Source: a virus. From it: a DNA stretch of 33,285 bases. Below the pieces are notes generated by a model, which saw only the letters and a program-made list of their open reading frames with translations, had not been told where the DNA came from and ran no database searches. Location of the stretch: UHGV virus genome UHGV-0213312; one strand, given 5' to 3'. The position numbers were made by a program, and so were the translations under genes. This document shows positions 5,998 through 27,446 of the stretch, in pieces. The stretch's first letter is position 1; every line of letters begins with the position of its first letter.

Positions 5998-6267
5998 GCT
6001 TCATGAGGCTATCTGTCCTGTAGATAACTTCATGTAGGCAAAATAATCGAAACAGAGCATTGGAGCTTAACAGTTTGGCTTTATATAAAAGTTAATCCAA
6101 GTTGTCAGTGTTTTGCCGAACGCTGGGTAAAGGCGAAGAGGTTATGAGCGACTGCGAGCGCTCATAACTAGAAGCTGGCGGTGAAAACCCGCTGGGTGCT
6201 CGAGCACCGACAACCTTGAGGGTCGGCAGGCCTCTGGCAATTTGGGGAAGTGGAGAAGAAATAAAAG

Positions 6268-9753: not shown

Positions 9754-9809
9754 CGGCGGTCAAGCAGCAGCCGTCGTCAGAGCAAAGCGCTGCGCACATT
9801 AACAATCAG

Positions 9810-10164: not shown

Positions 10165-10297
10165 GTTGACCTCTCAAAGCTGCGGGTAGTATCGCAATTT
10201 TAGGATAGCTTTTATCAAAGCACCTAGTACCTTTTTGACGCTATCCGCACCTCTGGTGGGTGTAAATAGTAAGAGCCCGCAGCTCTGAGAGGTCAAC
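10165..10297. repeat. 22-bp inverted repeat (1 mismatch) enclosing 89 nt
   Basis: GTTGACCTCTCAAAGCTGCGGG (10165-10186) versus CCCGCAGCTCTGAGAGGTCAAC (10276-10297). Confidence 0.9.
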
Positions 10298-10920: not shown

Positions 10921-11159
10921 TGTCTCTGATGAATTGCGCATTCACTGTTCGCTGGAGCGACGAGAAGAACAAACCGCACGCGAAAACCTACGCTACCGAA
11001 TCTGATGCCAAGCGAGCCAAGAAATGGTTGCTGGAGCACGGCGTTCGGAGCGTAGACATCGCGGTCAAGATAAATAATAAGCCAGTTGGTAGTTTGGAAG
11101 ATGGCGACAAGCCGTCTGAGACTGACGCTGAGCAGAAAGGATTTTGGTGGGAGAAGTGA
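10920..11159 (+). CDS. Hypothetical protein
   Basis: GGAGG SD; 79 aa. Confidence 0.65.
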   Translation: MSLMNCAFTVRWSDEKNKPHAKTYATESDAKRAKKWLLEHGVRSVDIAVKINNKPVGSLEDGDKPSETDAEQKGFWWEK

Positions 11160-12130
11160 TTGACGACAATCAATTCGACATATTCCAGTGGGCGAACTGG
11201 GCTGATGCTAATAAGAAAGATCTGCTCATCGACCTGTTCATTTTCAATAAAAACTTTATGCCATACGTGTTACCACTGAAAACATCGACCATAGAAGACC
11301 AAATGCGATCACTATTTCTTTACGACATGATCAATTTTGTGGAGACTGGAGCAGCTGTCGGACTGTCTATCAGGGACTACGCGACAAACGATCAAATGGA
11401 AAATGTTTTGCTATACAGCGAGCTTGAGAGCATCCAGCGTGCTGAGACACTCGTTTATTTTCTTGGAGACGATCGTATCTCTGAGTTCAATGAACAAGAA
11501 CACGAGCTGAAGCGTATGCATGGTATTGTGGCGCGGTTTAGCGATCCAAAAGATCCAGACAAGACCTTTTACATCGCCAAACAGCTGCAGCGGTCGCAGA
11601 TGTTGAGCAGGAGTCTCACATGGCAAGTTAGCGGCAGTGACTTTGGCGAGCTTAATGCCGACGCAGCGTTCAAGATACCACCCAATAACCAAGTGTTGAT
11701 CGCCGGAGGCAAAGTGTTCGCATTCAATCCAAAGAAGTTCGTCAATCTGTTCAAGCAAGATCCATCGAGCGACATTGTAACCAGGCGAATCGCCAAACAT
11801 CTAACTGAGAAGTTTGCGTTGTCATTCCCAGAGGGCTTGTCTTTGGAGGAGTTAGCTGACAACAGCAGGTCCTTGACCGACACACTGTTAAAGCTAGACG
11901 TTGAACATCTACCAGACCGACAAAGGGTCGTTGATCATGCTGACGAAATGAACTTGGCGCTCATGACAGACAATAACGACGGCATTATCGTCATGGATAA
12001 CCGTGACGCAATGATGTTCGTCAATATTCTGGCCGACAATTACGTCGATAGTAATCTGACCGGATCGCACTATCTTGCAACCAGTAAGAAGCGGATCGAT
12101 GGCGATTCGCAGATAAACATGAACGTATAA
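11144..12130 (+). CDS. DUF4868 / Kiwa KwaB-like protein
   Basis: ~325 aa with C-terminal 'FVNILADNYVDSNLTGSHYLATSKK', matching my recollection of the family's DxYxxSxLTGxxYxAxSK terminus; start uncertain. Confidence 0.6.
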   Translation: MVGEVIDDNQFDIFQWANWADANKKDLLIDLFIFNKNFMPYVLPLKTSTIEDQMRSLFLYDMINFVETGAAVGLSIRDYATNDQMENVLLYSELESIQRAETLVYFLGDDRISEFNEQEHELKRMHGIVARFSDPKDPDKTFYIAKQLQRSQMLSRSLTWQVSGSDFGELNADAAFKIPPNNQVLIAGGKVFAFNPKKFVNLFKQDPSSDIVTRRIAKHLTEKFALSFPEGLSLEELADNSRSLTDTLLKLDVEHLPDRQRVVDHADEMNLALMTDNNDGIIVMDNRDAMMFVNILADNYVDSNLTGSHYLATSKKRIDGDSQINMNV

Positions 12131-12418: not shown

Positions 12419-12483
12419 TCGGGACACATAAACGCCACTAACTAACGACCTACCATACGTCGAAAAACTGGGCGAACATTAAC

Positions 12484-13154
12484 AATTCAACCGCATAACT
12501 GGATAGATAATTGTAAATCAGATGGTAGAGCCGTGTTGCAACACGTACGCGACGGTGGTTCGAGTCCACCCAATTGTCTATTCAACTGGACAGATGATAT
12601 GTATTGTGCAGGGAAAGACCAGATAGCTTCTGGTGCTCGTTTCGTTTACGTGCTGGACGCAGTAACGGTTCATATTGTCATATGAACTATCAACAACCCC
12701 GCCGCCTCTCAGGAGAGTATGAGACAAGATATCTTGGCGCGAGTGAATAAAATCGTCTGTTCAACTGGTAGCACCAACGCACCTTTAATTGTTACTTAGG
12801 GAAAAAATTGTATACCTATTTATAGCTATTCTAAACAACTATATTTTGGTGCTATCAACTGGCAACATCATCAAGACAAATTAACCATATTAGTGCTATA
12901 CACCTGGTGTTGTCAACTGGCTATATAAGTGGCTCGAAAGCTTGAAGCTGAGCTTAGTGTTGCAGCTCGCGAAGTTCCGCAATTAGAGCTAGAAAAGTAA
13001 CTGCTGACTTTGCAACTTGAGTAGTGAAAGATGTGACCTTACACGACGCAGCTTAGTCTTTTGACTAAACGGTGGAAGCCCTGTGGTGAAAATCCCGTAA
13101 GACAGTGCGTGCAAATCATCGCCTTATATAGCCAACCAGTTATGCGGTTGAATT
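12484..13154 (+). ncRNA. Candidate structured RNA array: five stem-closed cassettes inside a 19-bp inverted repeat
   Basis: No ORF >=60 aa; repeated CAACTGG junctions; each unit has self-complementary ends with G-U pairs on the + strand. Confidence 0.65.
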
Positions 13155-13187
13155 AAACCGCACGATTTCGTGTAAATAAGGAAAATT

Positions 13188-17723: not shown

Positions 17724-20693
17724 GTGGCATTTTTTAGAAAGAACAACCCAGAATCGACACAAAAAAATCTAACAAGTGAAATCGGCTTTGCCGGCGACAT
17801 TGTATTTGAGGGTTTTGACCGCGAAGAGTCACGTATTGACGAAATTAGCATCAAAGACTATCGTAAAATGCTTGATAATGATACGACGGTCGAAGCGTTG
17901 TATAACATCTTTACTATGAGCATTCTGGCAGCGACATACCATATTGACGCCGATAGTAACGATGAGGGGGAAGTACAAGCTGAGCTGGTACGGCGCAATC
18001 TACTAGAGCCACCACATAAGGGCGGAATGCAAACGCCAATGAGTCTGTTTATTGATCAATCTCTAGCGGCGATTTATGAAGGCTTCGCGCTGTTTGAAAA
18101 AGTCTATGAAGTGCGAGACGGCAGATTAGTACTCAAGAGGCTAGCGCACCGCGACAGTACCACGCTCACACTCATTCGTGACACGGATGGTGGCTTTGGC
18201 GGAACAAAACAGCGCGCTGCTGACTCCGATGGTGTTTATCACGAGGTGATTATTCCAGCACACAAATGCTTCCTGTTTACGTATGGCAAGAGCCGCAATT
18301 ATCTTTACGGCCGCAGTGCGTTCAAGCCACTGTATCCACGCTACGACAAGAAGCGTCGACTAGAGTATCTGGACAGTATTGCCTTGCAGGCTGATGCTAT
18401 CAAACCGAAAGTTTTGCGGCGTACCGCTGACGGCGTCGTCTCTGATCAGCTAAAGAAAGCACGAAATAAGGCATTGGATGTGTTAGGCAGACTAGGCAAG
18501 CGTAACTCCGTGGCGTCGTTACCATATGGCTATAAACTTGATGTGTTGAATACAGAGGGTCGTGATCCGCACCAGTCAATCGAACGGCAAAACTCGGAGA
18601 TGGCGCGTGCGTTTCATGCGAGCGTTATCCTTACTGCAACGCAAGGCTCGGCAAGTAATGTTGGCTCGTACAGCCTGAGCACCAACCAGAAGGACCTACT
18701 ACAAACAGCAATCACTGGTGTTATGCGGCTATTGGAAGCGCATATCAACCAATACCTCATCGCCGACCTCATTGACTTGAATTTTGCCGAACGACACTAT
18801 CCAGAATTTCATTTCGATACACCAGACGAATCGATTATCTCGGCGGTATTTGAGGCGTTCAAATTGCTTGTGCAAAAAGACAAGGTGTCAGATGATATTG
18901 CTGCTGGAATCGAGGAATCAACAGCGACACGCCTTGGCATTGACCTGGAGGCGATCAAAAAGCGGCGGCAGGAAGATACGGAAGATGACAAGGCCGCTGG
19001 TAAAGAGAACGAAAACGCGGATGATAACAAAGATGGAGGTTCTGGCGACGACGCCGGCAAATTTCTAGGCGAAGACGACAAGCTTGGCGAAGTTGCTCCA
19101 CCTGAGCCGCACGAGCATGTTGCGATTGACCGAGATTTGACCGACGCCGAGAAGCGCGTTAAGTTTGATGTGATCGAAAAGTGGATGGCTGAGCAGGAGG
19201 CGAGTTTTGAAACCGCAGCGACCGAGGAACTGCGTAAAGCGGTGGCTGATATCTCGCTCGATGAGGAGTTCACGCTGCCAGCTAGCTATTCTGCGCTGCT
19301 GGCAAAACAATATCGCACAGCTTACAACTACGGCAAGCTATCCGCGGCAGATGAGCAGAAGCTGCCAGCACCAGTTCTGAAAAAGGAGCTGAGGGCGCGA
19401 GAAAAACAATACGTGGATTTCATTATCAATATGCAGACTGAAGACGTGCGTAATATTATTGCTGGCGAGAAGTTGAAGCAGCCTATTAACTTGGCTGACG
19501 GTGACGGCGAGGACATTGATGAAGAATCTGGAGCACCTAACACTAGCGGTAAACAGGACGAAGCTGCCCGCAATACGATGTTGGAATCAATCGGGTTATT
19601 GACGAGTGCCTGGATTACTCAAGCAGTACTCGGCACTAAAGGCACTATTATCTCACAAGGTATGAACGATGGGCGTGATGATAGTTTTGCGTCGTTTGAT
19701 GAAGATGACGACACGGCTGCCTATCAGTGGTCGGCGCGGATGGAGAAAAACACCTGTCCAATTTGCGCCGAGCTAGACGGCAAGGTGATTTCTGCCAACG
19801 AACGCAGAACTACGTTCCAGCGTCCGCCAAAGCACATCAACTGTGGTTGCATTTGGGTGAGGGTGTCGGCGCTAAACAAGGACTATAAGTTGCCGGCGGT
19901 AACAGGGATTGATAATAAGCTCATTGAGCGGCTGGAATATATCCAGAGAACAACTAAAGCTGAGCTGGCAAGTACGATACCTGGGGCACTGAAATACACA
20001 AAGGCTGAACTATCGAGCATTGAGTCGTATAAAGGGAATGGATACATCAACATCAACCAGGCGCTGTTGGGCAATCATCCTATGAATCCGTATGCTGAGG
20101 CTGATATTAAACAGCTGGATAAAGCGATTAAAAAAACAAAGTTGGAGAAAGATATCGTACTATATCGCGGTATCGGGCTAGAATCAAAATTGTCGATTAA
20201 CGATATCGTTGATAATCCTAATTTTCTCTCTACTTCTACTAGCCCAAGAATATCGATAGAGTTTGCACAGCAGTCTGAAGCGAATAAATATGTGTTTATT
20301 TTCAGAGCCCCAAAGAATATGCCATATTTGGACATTGAAAAAACATTGGCAGATAATAATGTCAATTCAACAATTAACGAACGAGAATATTTACTGTCGC
20401 GAGGCAAGAAGCTTGTTGTAAAAAACCTCTCAAAGAGGGATAATGGAGTTATAGTAGCAGAGGTGGAGATGACGGACGATACAAAATACTTGGATGACAG
20501 CAACGACAGTATCCTCACTGAGGGTTTACTGAGGGAGATTGACGAATCGTACGAGCGCTCCAAAAAGCGCCTTGCTGATCCAAATTACAAACCGAGCCAA
20601 ACAGCCAGGCGCCTACATCACATCTGGCAAATGGACTCTGACTACTTTAATGAGCACCCTGAAGCTATCAAATCCAAAGATAACGATGAATAG
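17724..20693 (+). CDS. Portal (Mu gp29/DUF935-like) fused to a MuF head-morphogenesis domain and a C-terminal ADP-ribosyltransferase
   Basis: Position after terL; MuF motif 'TCPICAELDG..PPKHINCGC'; ART motifs 'SYKGNGYININQALL', 'LYRG', 'FLSTS', 'EREYLL'. Confidence 0.85.
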   Translation: MAFFRKNNPESTQKNLTSEIGFAGDIVFEGFDREESRIDEISIKDYRKMLDNDTTVEALYNIFTMSILAATYHIDADSNDEGEVQAELVRRNLLEPPHKGGMQTPMSLFIDQSLAAIYEGFALFEKVYEVRDGRLVLKRLAHRDSTTLTLIRDTDGGFGGTKQRAADSDGVYHEVIIPAHKCFLFTYGKSRNYLYGRSAFKPLYPRYDKKRRLEYLDSIALQADAIKPKVLRRTADGVVSDQLKKARNKALDVLGRLGKRNSVASLPYGYKLDVLNTEGRDPHQSIERQNSEMARAFHASVILTATQGSASNVGSYSLSTNQKDLLQTAITGVMRLLEAHINQYLIADLIDLNFAERHYPEFHFDTPDESIISAVFEAFKLLVQKDKVSDDIAAGIEESTATRLGIDLEAIKKRRQEDTEDDKAAGKENENADDNKDGGSGDDAGKFLGEDDKLGEVAPPEPHEHVAIDRDLTDAEKRVKFDVIEKWMAEQEASFETAATEELRKAVADISLDEEFTLPASYSALLAKQYRTAYNYGKLSAADEQKLPAPVLKKELRAREKQYVDFIINMQTEDVRNIIAGEKLKQPINLADGDGEDIDEESGAPNTSGKQDEAARNTMLESIGLLTSAWITQAVLGTKGTIISQGMNDGRDDSFASFDEDDDTAAYQWSARMEKNTCPICAELDGKVISANERRTTFQRPPKHINCGCIWVRVSALNKDYKLPAVTGIDNKLIERLEYIQRTTKAELASTIPGALKYTKAELSSIESYKGNGYININQALLGNHPMNPYAEADIKQLDKAIKKTKLEKDIVLYRGIGLESKLSINDIVDNPNFLSTSTSPRISIEFAQQSEANKYVFIFRAPKNMPYLDIEKTLADNNVNSTINEREYLLSRGKKLVVKNLSKRDNGVIVAEVEMTDDTKYLDDSNDSILTEGLLREIDESYERSKKRLADPNYKPSQTARRLHHIWQMDSDYFNEHPEAIKSKDNDE

Positions 20694-26319: not shown

Positions 26320-27351
26320 TTATCGTCGGCGATAACTCTCGCAGGCAACACCGTCGCCGTCTCTATCGAGGTTTGGCGAATAGCCAGGCTCGCCGCGGCG
26401 CATATTGCTGTAGCCTGCGGCGTGTGCCTCTTTGCAGCTGCTGAAACTTACATCACCACCAGGTTGAGTCTGCTGCGGAGCGGGAGCAGCGGGTACGGCT
26501 GGTTGTGCTACTGATTTTTCCGTATCGCCAGAGCAGGTAGTCGGCGACCACAAGCCCTTGTTTTCCTCTCGCGCTAGTCGCTGAGCTTCGCGAAATTGTG
26601 ACTGCCACCTGTGTGGGTTTGAATTGTATGTGTATTCATGCCCGTAACCCTCGCGGATCATCGTGTAGGCGACATTTGTGCCGTCCTCAAGATAGACGTA
26701 GAATAAATCACGGCCGTATTTGTCTCTGCTACTTTGGGTGGTGTCAGCAACTAGATAAACAGTTTTGCCGGCTACCAGATCGTTCATTTTTTGGGACGCC
26801 TCTTTACCAAAGCATTGAACAGGTTTGCGTGGGTGCTTTGTTTCTGGGGTGTCAATTCCAACAAGGCGTATTTTATTGTGTTTTGATGTGCGGATCGTAT
26901 CGCCGTCTATTACTTCTGTTACAGTATCTTTCTCACCTTGCTTGAAATTGACATCTTGAGCTAGCTTATCATCGAACTTTGGCGTCTCTGGCTTTTTTTC
27001 TGGCTGTTTTTGTTGCGACTGTTCGTTTTTAGTTTGCTGAGTGTTGGCGGATTGCTTTTCTGCTTCGCGAACTTGAGTCAGCATGGGTCCTCCTATACTA
27101 AATAAGACAACAACGAGACAGAAGGCTACGACACGAGAAATCTTGGATATTTTCTTCCACTTAAAAATAGTGATTCCGAGTAGTATGATGCTGGCGAGCA
27201 TTAACGTTGTAGCTACGGACTCTTTTAGCCCGCTTGGCAGCCAACATAGGAATATAAGAATTATTGCGACAATGAACCATATTGGTGTCAACTTTCTCCA
27301 ATCTGGTCTGTTATCGTTTGTATTTTTATTGATAGGTTTCAGTGATTTCAT
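26320..27351 (-). CDS. Membrane-anchored thermonuclease (SNase) with C-terminal Excalibur domain; moron
   Basis: Three N-terminal TM segments; 'VIDGDTI', 'IRLVGIDTPE', 'DKYGR'; 'CKEA..AG...GEPGYSPNLDRDGDGVACE'. Confidence 0.9.
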   Translation of the reverse strand: MKSLKPINKNTNDNRPDWRKLTPIWFIVAIILIFLCWLPSGLKESVATTLMLASIILLGITIFKWKKISKISRVVAFCLVVVLFSIGGPMLTQVREAEKQSANTQQTKNEQSQQKQPEKKPETPKFDDKLAQDVNFKQGEKDTVTEVIDGDTIRTSKHNKIRLVGIDTPETKHPRKPVQCFGKEASQKMNDLVAGKTVYLVADTTQSSRDKYGRDLFYVYLEDGTNVAYTMIREGYGHEYTYNSNPHRWQSQFREAQRLAREENKGLWSPTTCSGDTEKSVAQPAVPAAPAPQQTQPGGDVSFSSCKEAHAAGYSNMRRGEPGYSPNLDRDGDGVACESYRRR

Positions 27352-27373
27352 ATTATGAATTATAGAAGCAATT

Positions 27374-27446
27374 TGGTATAATACAAGTAATAAGTTGCGA
27401 TCGCTTCGGTCGCAATTTTTCTTTTGCCACAAGAGTGGTCGCTTTT
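27374..27446 (+). promoter_or_regulatory. Extended -10 promoter plus leader switch (tape measure operon copy)
   Basis: TGGTATAAT, TTGCGATCG-ctt-CGGTCGCAA, TTTTTCTTTT; alternative partner GTGGTCGC at 27435-27442. Confidence 0.75.

Follow-up and report, generated by a model that had tools for sequence, protein, structure and literature searches.

A phage array of stem-closed, exchangeable RNA units with likeness to the rRNA operons of its Saccharibacteria hosts

What does a temperate tailed phage carry in a gene-free gap where five units, each closed by its own stem and followed by a four-letter linker, stand between the arms of an inverted repeat? The window analysed here, that is, the whole 33,285-nt stretch of DNA of the virus genome UHGV-0213312, includes an integrase gene by a tRNA-Thr, genes for an exonuclease, a Sak4-like annealing protein and SSB, a KwaB-like gene, the array itself, a Dam-like methylase gene, a terminase gene and morphogenesis genes. 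The array lies in a gap inside a + strand operon, and scans for a sigma-70 promoter or a terminator flanking it stayed at chance level. The best explanation, to which we give a rough probability of 0.6, is a phage module built like an rRNA operon and loaded with swappable RNA cargo, from which host RNase III would release stem-protected small RNAs, likely acting as mimics or decoys against the host. The parts of the array are as follows.

12474..12485 (+): boxA-like leader GAACATTAACAA, a predicted NusB/E antitermination signal
12484..12502 (+): outer processing stem, 5' arm; predicted cut 12499/12500 (AAC^U)
12501..12583 (+): unit 1 (slot 1), a tRNA-shaped RNA; acceptor-like stem of 13 bp, anticodon loop non-standard
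12584..12587 (+): AACT linker after unit 1; predicted cut 12586/12587
12588..12762 (+): unit 2 (slot 2), a 175-nt cargo, kind not assigned, in the slot-2 stem
12763..12766 (+): AACT linker after unit 2; predicted cut 12765/12766
12767..12856 (+): unit 3 (slot 3), AU-rich and weakly structured cargo of family F6
12857..12860 (+): AACT linker after unit 3; predicted cut 12859/12860
12861..12914 (+): unit 4 (slot 4), a short stem with a large internal loop and a small hairpin
12915..12918 (+): AACT linker after unit 4; predicted cut 12917/12918
12919..13133 (+): unit 5 (slot 5), a tRNA-like scaffold with two variable inserts, one splitting the T-arm
13136..13154 (+): outer stem, 3' arm, which gives CCA (13136-13138) to the last unit; predicted cut 13140/13141 (AGU^U)
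13143..13162 (+): hairpin possible after the cut, capping the 5' end of the downstream mRNA of the Dam-like gene (predicted fold)

This layout had been proposed in a sequence-only reading of the window, and its descriptive part proved accurate: 13136-13154 is the exact reverse complement of 12484-12502, the coordinates and lengths claimed for the five units (83, 175, 90, 54 and 215 nt) are right, AACT stands behind units 1-4 and AACC behind unit 5, and the closing stems hold exactly seven non-Watson-Crick pairs, all of them G-T on the + strand (2+2+1+2+0). The units had also been called unrelated; this does not hold altogether, since their stems have a common position-specific signature. A chain of four consecutive AACT|GG stem-closed units was found on the + strand of the window and none on the - strand, and not one of 300 dinucleotide-shuffled windows gave even a single such unit. 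In units 2-5 the first 10 closing pairs have a pairing probability of at least 0.91; in unit 1 the first two pairs, which compete with the outer arm, reach 0.04 and 0.10, the third 0.86 and the rest at least 0.98. The whole array folds as a multi-branched star, with z = -5.7 relative to 20 shuffled versions. With the stems taken away, the five cargo sequences do not exceed shuffled ones in folding stability (z from -0.4 to +1.0), so that the signal in the window lies in the stems. These closing stems form under DNA energy parameters as well, and energy alone does not separate DNA from RNA.

Other features of the window are recorded here in their own right. The KwaB-like gene (Kiwa anti-phage; 11144-12130, +), upstream of the array, scores under the NCBIfam cut-off. 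A gene at 17724-20693 (+) encodes a portal protein with a fused MuF domain and, at the C terminus, an ADP-ribosyltransferase domain, and one at 26320-27432 (-), on the opposite strand among the tail genes, combines a membrane region with a staphylococcal-nuclease domain and an Excalibur domain. A multi-hairpin structure is predicted at 6110-6250 (+), between the tRNA-Thr and the exonuclease gene; a second boxA-like sequence occurs at 9794-9805 (+) with no array behind it; and a separate stem-closed RNA at 10165-10297 (+) has a 22-bp closing helix and two inner hairpins, its inner stem motif recurring in 17 loci of the collected set.

The array is a member of a widespread family. A 14-nt arm pattern occurs in at least 122 viral loci, with both arms exact in at least 34. 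A first set, in which 162 of 486 sequences gave 103 distinct arrays of 135-765 nt, was collected with two mismatches allowed in the arms, so that arm conservation there is partly circular. A replicate set of 67 loci with enough flank, selected by a slot-5 motif alone, shows the boxA-like leader in 59 loci and each of the two arms in 64, and AACT in 139 of its 157 linkers. All loci pooled amount to 179 distinct arrays from two unrelated phage groups. Among 27 terminase relatives with at least 6 kb of upstream sequence, 17 pass a strict test for the array, six have variant or partial arrays and four have none. The second group consists of 72-76-kb phages with three arrays per genome, among which a search with the window terminase, made without a positive control, found no relative. 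Arrays are present in two Saccharibacteria genome records (L123 and L184) and in G198, of the same order, and two array-bearing metagenome contigs are labelled human oral; the family is widespread within its host clade, as an element of oral Saccharibacteria phages. Against 401 host-order genomes the window array matched prophage copies only, and no match was found among cultured GenBank phages.

Some members of the family deserve separate mention. Three arrays each, all on one strand and some behind further boxA-led stem-closed RNAs, were seen in the large phages (L782:11320, L782:16401, L783:7099 of G682, L786, L788). The 74-kb phage G682 also encodes a class I (Glu/Gln) tRNA synthetase. A second element, found in 20 collected loci and not in the window, has this boxA-like leader, too, and encloses a fixed cargo in a long closing stem (L520:3200, L521:3639, L538:4438, L551:5595 and others), with a near-empty form at L522:3666.

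Comparison across the first set shows how strongly the stems are constrained. Its 103 arrays comprise 357 units, 349 of them stem-closed, with one to six per array. Internal linkers read AACT in 212 of 252 cases, the commonest variants (AATT, AGCT, AACC and GACT) being the four transitions, which do not discriminate. The unbroken closing stem is most often 11 bp long (156/349) and reaches at least 10 bp in 311/349; the linker U at -1 pairs with the base after the stem, as U-A or U-G, in 312 of 328 units. Among 138 distinct stems, positions 3-6, 9 and 11 switch among Watson-Crick pair types with pairing kept, and the remaining positions are close to fixed (G1 in 138, G2 in 136, A7-U in 134, Y8-R in 137, A10-U in 130). 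The junction octamer (YCAACUGG), which forms a two-fold site, is self-complementary around a 2-nt AC core in 208 of 225 cases and fully in 9, which follows in part from the fact that all units start with GG and end with YC. Unit-wise variation and compensatory changes in the closing stems, both expected of relatives under the sequence-only reading, are present. Slots keep the order S1-S6, broken in just two of the 103 arrays, once through ambiguous orientation and once through a hybrid stem label, both artefacts. The outer helix measures 16-19 bp in 86 arrays, and in roughly one array out of three a T-A pair of it is replaced, with compensation, by G-C; its 3' arm supplies CCA in all 103, the final A belonging to the arm motif that delimits them, and the four bases past the predicted 3'-arm cut are TATG in 64 and TCTG in 33. 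In 87 distinct closing stems there are 148 G-T pairs against 10 A-C, and of the tetraloops, 9 of 58 on the + strand are GNRA against 2 of 44 on the - strand. The strand bias of G-T over A-C, the covariation of the stems, the GNRA excess on the + strand and the tRNA matches described below together argue that the array acts as a + strand RNA.

The processing model draws on the host: AACU/AGUU in its pre-rRNA helices, a similar leader, and genes for RNase III and NusB. The boxA-like leader stands no more than 30 nt upstream in 156 of 177 arrays, and the phage leader shares at least 11 of 14 nt with 19 of 30 host 16S leaders, against 10 of 600 shuffled ones; with the gamma-proteobacterial consensus GYTCTTTAANA, as given in the part of PMC5725501 drawn on, it agrees in the 3' part only. 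AACT/AGTT occurs in 19 of 28 host 23S helices against 4.4 expected and in 9 of 30 host 16S helices against 4.8 expected, the latter weak alone, and 8 of 30 host 16S helices have 7 of 9 nt in common with the arm core, against 1.5% of shuffled ones; since the host genomes are related, these helix and leader counts are not independent. When the E. coli proximal-box rule is applied to the host helices that have the AAC^U register, this register comes first, alone or tied, in 9 of 9 (alone in 4) and in 13 of 14, in a test drawing on 27 + 24 host helices of at least 15 bp each. Among 41 host-family genomes, which are incomplete, RNase III is over cut-off in 39 and NusB in 40, RNase Z and Ro60 in none; in G198, nusB lies two genes ahead of rnc. 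Four of five host-order genomes have an RNase P RNA, and all 44 host-family tRNA genes examined encode CCA. Judged from its bases, the outer stem with its boxA-like leader has the features of an rrn-type boxA followed by a predicted RNase III stem.

The fit to the enzyme of E. coli differs between the outer stem and the internal junctions. According to excerpts of PMC1540722, a minimal E. coli RNase III substrate is a helix of 11 bp, briefly extended on the 5' side, for which one proximal and one distal box are enough; a U-G pair is required in the distal box, the enzyme favours A-U at bp 2-3 together with G-C at bp 4, and its binding is blocked when bp 3 is G-C or C-G. The 3' half-site of the outer stem agrees with four of four rules when it reads TATG and with three when it reads TCTG, that of the 5' side with one or two of four. 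The internal half-site, U-G-G-N, departs from the proximal-box preferences, with G at bp 2, G-U (89) or G-C (47) at bp 3 and mostly a pyrimidine or A, almost never G, at bp 4; on one side, the host 23S helix likewise shows G-C at bp 3. U-G occurs at bp 9 in 81 of 138 stems, a position that may be that of the distal-box U-G. A single AAC^U cut would leave each unit with a 12-bp helix, the linker U counted as paired, and a 2-nt 3' overhang, the shape of an RNase III product; a cut shifted to A^ACU fits the rules better on the 5' strand, yet symmetry and overhang are lost.

In the processing model, the array would be transcribed on the + strand within an early operon, and host Nus factors would be loaded at the boxA-like leader. 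RNase III cutting the outer stem at AAC^U and AGU^U would then free the array, and a single cut at each AAC^U junction would at once set the 3' end of the unit before it and the 5' end of the unit behind it, while slot-specific stem sequences would prevent mis-pairing between units. The modular small-RNA array suggested by the sequence-only reading gains indirect support from unit-wise variation, compensatory stem changes, the G-U strand bias and the likeness to host RNase III helices, its cutting at the junctions standing as a prediction.

That the transcript instead remains one long branched RNA, cut at the outer stem alone or nowhere, with the units as arms of a multivalent scaffold or sponge, is unlikely. 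The folding of the whole array as a single star would suit it, as would the unit half-sites, which violate the E. coli proximal-box rule, but such a scaffold has no need for a fixed linker (AACT 212/252; 139/157) that is the same AACT as in the outer stem, nor for fixed pairs at stem positions 7, 8 and 10. A slim chance is left to release by another enzyme or at another bond, namely by RNase P at the post-linker G, by a single-strand nuclease at AACU or by RNase III at A^ACU. U at -1 and G at +1 suit RNase P, whose RNA is found in most of the host-order genomes (4/5), and several units are tRNA-shaped; in the case of a cut at A^ACU, the proximal-box position would fall to the invariant G, as described in the portion of PMC9291653 used here. 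Most units, however, have no T-arm and their 3' side offers AACU rather than CCA, which the 44 host-family tRNA genes all encode; RNase Z is over cut-off in 0/41, and AAC^U/AGU^U is the register favoured in host rRNA helices.

The cargo within the stems is diverse and recurs in part. Unit 1 scores 24.6 bits (E 0.012) against the Rfam tRNA model, under the gathering score, and its relatives 36-37 bits, over it. Unit 1 cargo is also found in 11 of 178 other arrays, that of unit 2 in one (L519) and that of unit 3 in nine; the unit 4 type (F1 + F2) is the commonest cargo, with 51 unit occurrences in 103 arrays, its RNAalifold support being restricted to the closing stem. BLAST sorts the cargo into 80 clusters, a figure that overstates diversity because slot-5 cargo is mosaic; these stand in 91 combinations among 103 arrays. 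The families comprise tRNA-shaped RNAs, tRNA-Tyr, a captured small gene and many of no assigned kind; F3 and F5 cargo occurs in more than one slot, and F3 has compensated pairs inside the cargo. Among 77 distinct slot-5 units, 28 have a tRNA-Leu-type D-arm and 25 the window's 5' type, and the T-arm is intact in 7 and split by 46-112 nt in 53; the slot-5 D-arm equals that of a host tRNA-Leu at 20 of 21 nt. Of the 179 arrays, 137 have T-loop-like and 76 have D-loop-like motifs, as counted with short patterns and without shuffle control. Relaxed ARAGORN runs on the 179 arrays returned four Tyr, one Met and 23 undecodable tRNAs. A tRNA-Tyr(GTA) fills the last slot of four arrays; three of these (L006:2418-2500, L030:3022-3104, L386:1127-1209) have two acceptor-stem mismatches each and take their CCA from the closing arm. 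In two arrays a small protein gene lies inside the slot-5 stem (L673:697-873, +; L724:455-649, -), with a Shine-Dalgarno site and 59-65 codons; its homologues are ordinary genes near arrays in many relatives, and the captured ORF has no PHROG match.

At the gathering level Rfam recognises only tRNA (window + 20 array loci), and with the limit relaxed to E 0.5, another 20 loci give tRNA and, under threshold, three plastid matches that overlap tRNAs; likenesses to hammerhead, pistol, 6S, group II and MazF sites have no Rfam support. Cargo compared with host rRNA and RNase P RNA gave no match save the tRNAs and the 16S trailer, which in 5 of 30 hosts has a 15-nt stretch in common with the most frequent slot-2 5' strand (best shuffled, 12). 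Long antisense targets of the cargo were found neither in 64 related phage loci nor in the window (best E 0.035); regulatory antisense action may proceed by short-seed pairing through pyrimidine-rich loops.

Several identities were tried and rejected. Unit 5 is not a tmRNA: Rfam gave E 3.7, there was no tmRNA call, the putative stop is missing in some relatives, and BLAST against four host tmRNAs returned just a 19-nt chance-level match. Mimicry of CRISPR repeats by the main slot-2 family was dropped, the best cargo match to the repeats recovered at 22 of 30 host-family cas1 loci (Cas2 loci examined had no arrays) being 75% over 28 nt (E 0.006), and a CRISPR array was likewise set aside for want of identical repeats or likeness to host CRISPR repeats. 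A tRNA cluster with RNase P/RNase Z punctuation is contradicted by the lack, as a rule, of canonical cloverleaves with 7-bp acceptors and by RNase Z in 0/41; a Y RNA by Ro60 over cut-off in 0/41 host-family genomes and in none of 40 window ORFs; and a retron ncRNA by the lack of a reverse transcriptase in these 40 ORFs or in 60 ORFs of the 74-kb phage. As a separate observation, three host-family genomes (L654, L655, L656) have, by divergent cas1 genes, CRISPR-like arrays whose repeat measures 25-26 nt and whose period is as short as 43-44 nt.

Slimmer still is the chance of a mainly cis-acting role, in which boxA would antiterminate and the cut would reset the downstream mRNA, or of titration of the rRNA machinery, in which the many stems would absorb RNase III and NusB, with the cargo secondary in either case. 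It would be in keeping with an array lying inside a + strand operon without its own promoter, with the extra boxA-led stems that accompany three arrays in the 72-76-kb phages, with the near-empty second element L522 and with the slot-2 family that copies part of the 16S trailer; it leaves unexplained, however, the recurring cargo with compensatory pairs, the conserved tRNA D- and T-loops and the tRNA-Tyr of the last slot.

How the cargo is exchanged can be read from close relatives. L062 and L083 share units 1, 3, 4 and 5 with the window and have unrelated slot-2 cargo, the identity in slot 2 stopping 14 nt inside the 5' end and 11 nt inside the 3' end. Imprecise deletions were seen in L099, L440 and L522. 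No inversion was found: the leader is upstream in 88 of 103 arrays and reversed in one of ambiguous orientation, and none of the 67 replicate loci is reversed; an invertible element of the shufflon type, which would occur in both orientations, was therefore rejected. The proposal that cassettes recombine site-specifically at CAACTGG is not supported, because swaps break at the inner stem edges, reordering and inversion are missing and deletions are imprecise. The phage tyrosine recombinase, at 85 bits against an integron-integrase cut-off of 265, adjoins the tRNA-Thr as an ordinary prophage integrase. An integron array was also rejected, since attC R-boxes stand at both outer ends in just 36 of 103 arrays and cassettes are not reordered; the outer ends of the window fit what we take to be the attC R-box pattern. 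Integron- or Xer-like DNA cassettes, that is, ssDNA hairpins recombined at CAACTGG by a tyrosine recombinase, are hence scarcely tenable: the phage has such a recombinase, its stems form as DNA too and its ends fit the R-box motif, but the enzyme falls far under the cut-off (85 vs 265 bits), the R-boxes are at both ends in 36/103 only, and the order is fixed, without inversion, with swaps within stems and deletions that are imprecise. Taken together, swaps at inner stem edges, fixed order, lack of inversion and imprecise deletions fit short-homology recombination with selection for intact stems and would call for no site-specific recombinase. Under the processing model, cargo or whole units, the variation of which is observed, would thus be swapped, lost and captured by short-homology recombination at the conserved stems, probably with the Sak4-like annealing protein as the agent.

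As to what the released RNAs would do, many being tRNA-shaped and non-decoding, they could act by titrating RNA-binding or anti-phage proteins of the host, or stand in for cleaved tRNA; this is the least certain step of the model. T4 RNA ligase and polynucleotide kinase-phosphatase repair cleaved tRNA, and the 74-kb phage G682 has an RNA ligase gene about 800 nt upstream of one array together with a polynucleotide kinase-phosphatase; ligation of unit ends in this phage is possible. A role of the released RNAs in counter-defence or protection of translation, at somewhat under even odds, is suggested by the turnover of cargo, the mimicry of tRNAs with over-long acceptors, the real tRNA-Tyr and this ligase and kinase-phosphatase pair. 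No cargo could be tied directly to a defence system, and host CRISPR repeats do not match. The bolder idea of a plug-and-play RNA vector, in which host antitermination and RNase III would be used to mass-produce a shuffled set of dozens of undescribed small RNAs, each countering a different defence or translation factor, is more doubtful and is offered tentatively.

Among the closest known systems are bacterial rRNA operons, in which boxA and Nus factors bring about antitermination and RNase III cuts the leader-trailer helices (PMC10250234, PMC5725501). Like the arrays, they have a boxA-like leader directly before a long helix around structured RNA. Host rRNA operons and arrays have the same leader and the same AACU/AGUU core. 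Unlike an rRNA operon, the array resides in a phage and contains one to six small, variable and exchangeable RNAs, each with its own 11-bp helix, separated by 4-nt linkers. Integron gene-cassette arrays hold interchangeable cassettes between short conserved hairpin-forming sites; the arrays differ in having no integron integrase, no attC per cassette, a fixed order and non-coding cargo. The early mRNA of phage T7 has five RNase III signals, some of them single cuts at imperfect sites, and, like the predicted array transcript, is a polycistronic phage RNA punctuated for host RNase III, with the difference that in T7 hairpins stand between protein genes and in the array a helix clamps both ends of non-coding cargo (PMC3867540, sections on T7). 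A tRNA-Tyr of phage T5 counters retron Ec78, according to the accessible text of bioRxiv 10.1101/2023.03.15.532788. Phage tRNA clusters resemble the arrays in supplying tRNA or tRNA-shaped RNA from the phage, including the tRNA-Tyr(GTA) of four arrays; array cargo, unlike theirs, mostly has 11-13-bp acceptor stems and undecodable anticodon arms, and its junctions are not of the CCA/RNase Z type. Solitary-repeat Racrs are phage RNA anti-CRISPRs that mimic host RNAs. Phage RNA anti-CRISPRs and viral sgRNAs are alike to the cargo as phage small RNAs mimicking host RNAs; viral sgRNAs are not described in stem-closed slots in the available part of bioRxiv 10.64898/2026.06.01.729453, and array cargo has no match beyond chance to the host-family CRISPR repeats or cas flanks examined.

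The array is not a member of any family tested, and the statement of the sequence-only reading that no described element has this architecture agrees with a literature search, covering few subscription journals, in which no published description of the layout was found. It was not found in the portions consulted of PMC10746230, bioRxiv 10.1101/2023.03.12.532304 and PMC10690425, and both stem motifs are missing from six supplementary files of the last, whose other files may hold single cargo RNAs as candidates. The parts are thus known, and the layout with swappable RNA cargo was not found described. If the processing model is true, phages would possess a general modular route for delivering many non-coding RNAs together, and dozens of candidate RNA effectors with predefined ends would become available in Patescibacteria, whose RNA biology and defences are barely known. 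The model predicts the cut site of Saccharibacteria RNase III to the base, and the slot design, with orthogonal 11-bp stems, a 4-nt linker and one host enzyme, could serve as a blueprint for multiplexed small-RNA expression in bacteria. Eukaryotic pri-miRNA clusters also yield several RNAs from one precursor. Processed by Drosha, an enzyme of the RNase III family, these clusters give several stem-closed RNAs with 2-nt 3' overhangs (PMC3867540, as far as its treatment of Drosha was accessible). This likeness is an analogy without homology, the arrays belonging to a bacterial virus; if the vector reading were true, the array would do in RNA what anti-defence islands do with genes and would parallel microRNA clusters in bacteria, possibly representing a wider class in phages.
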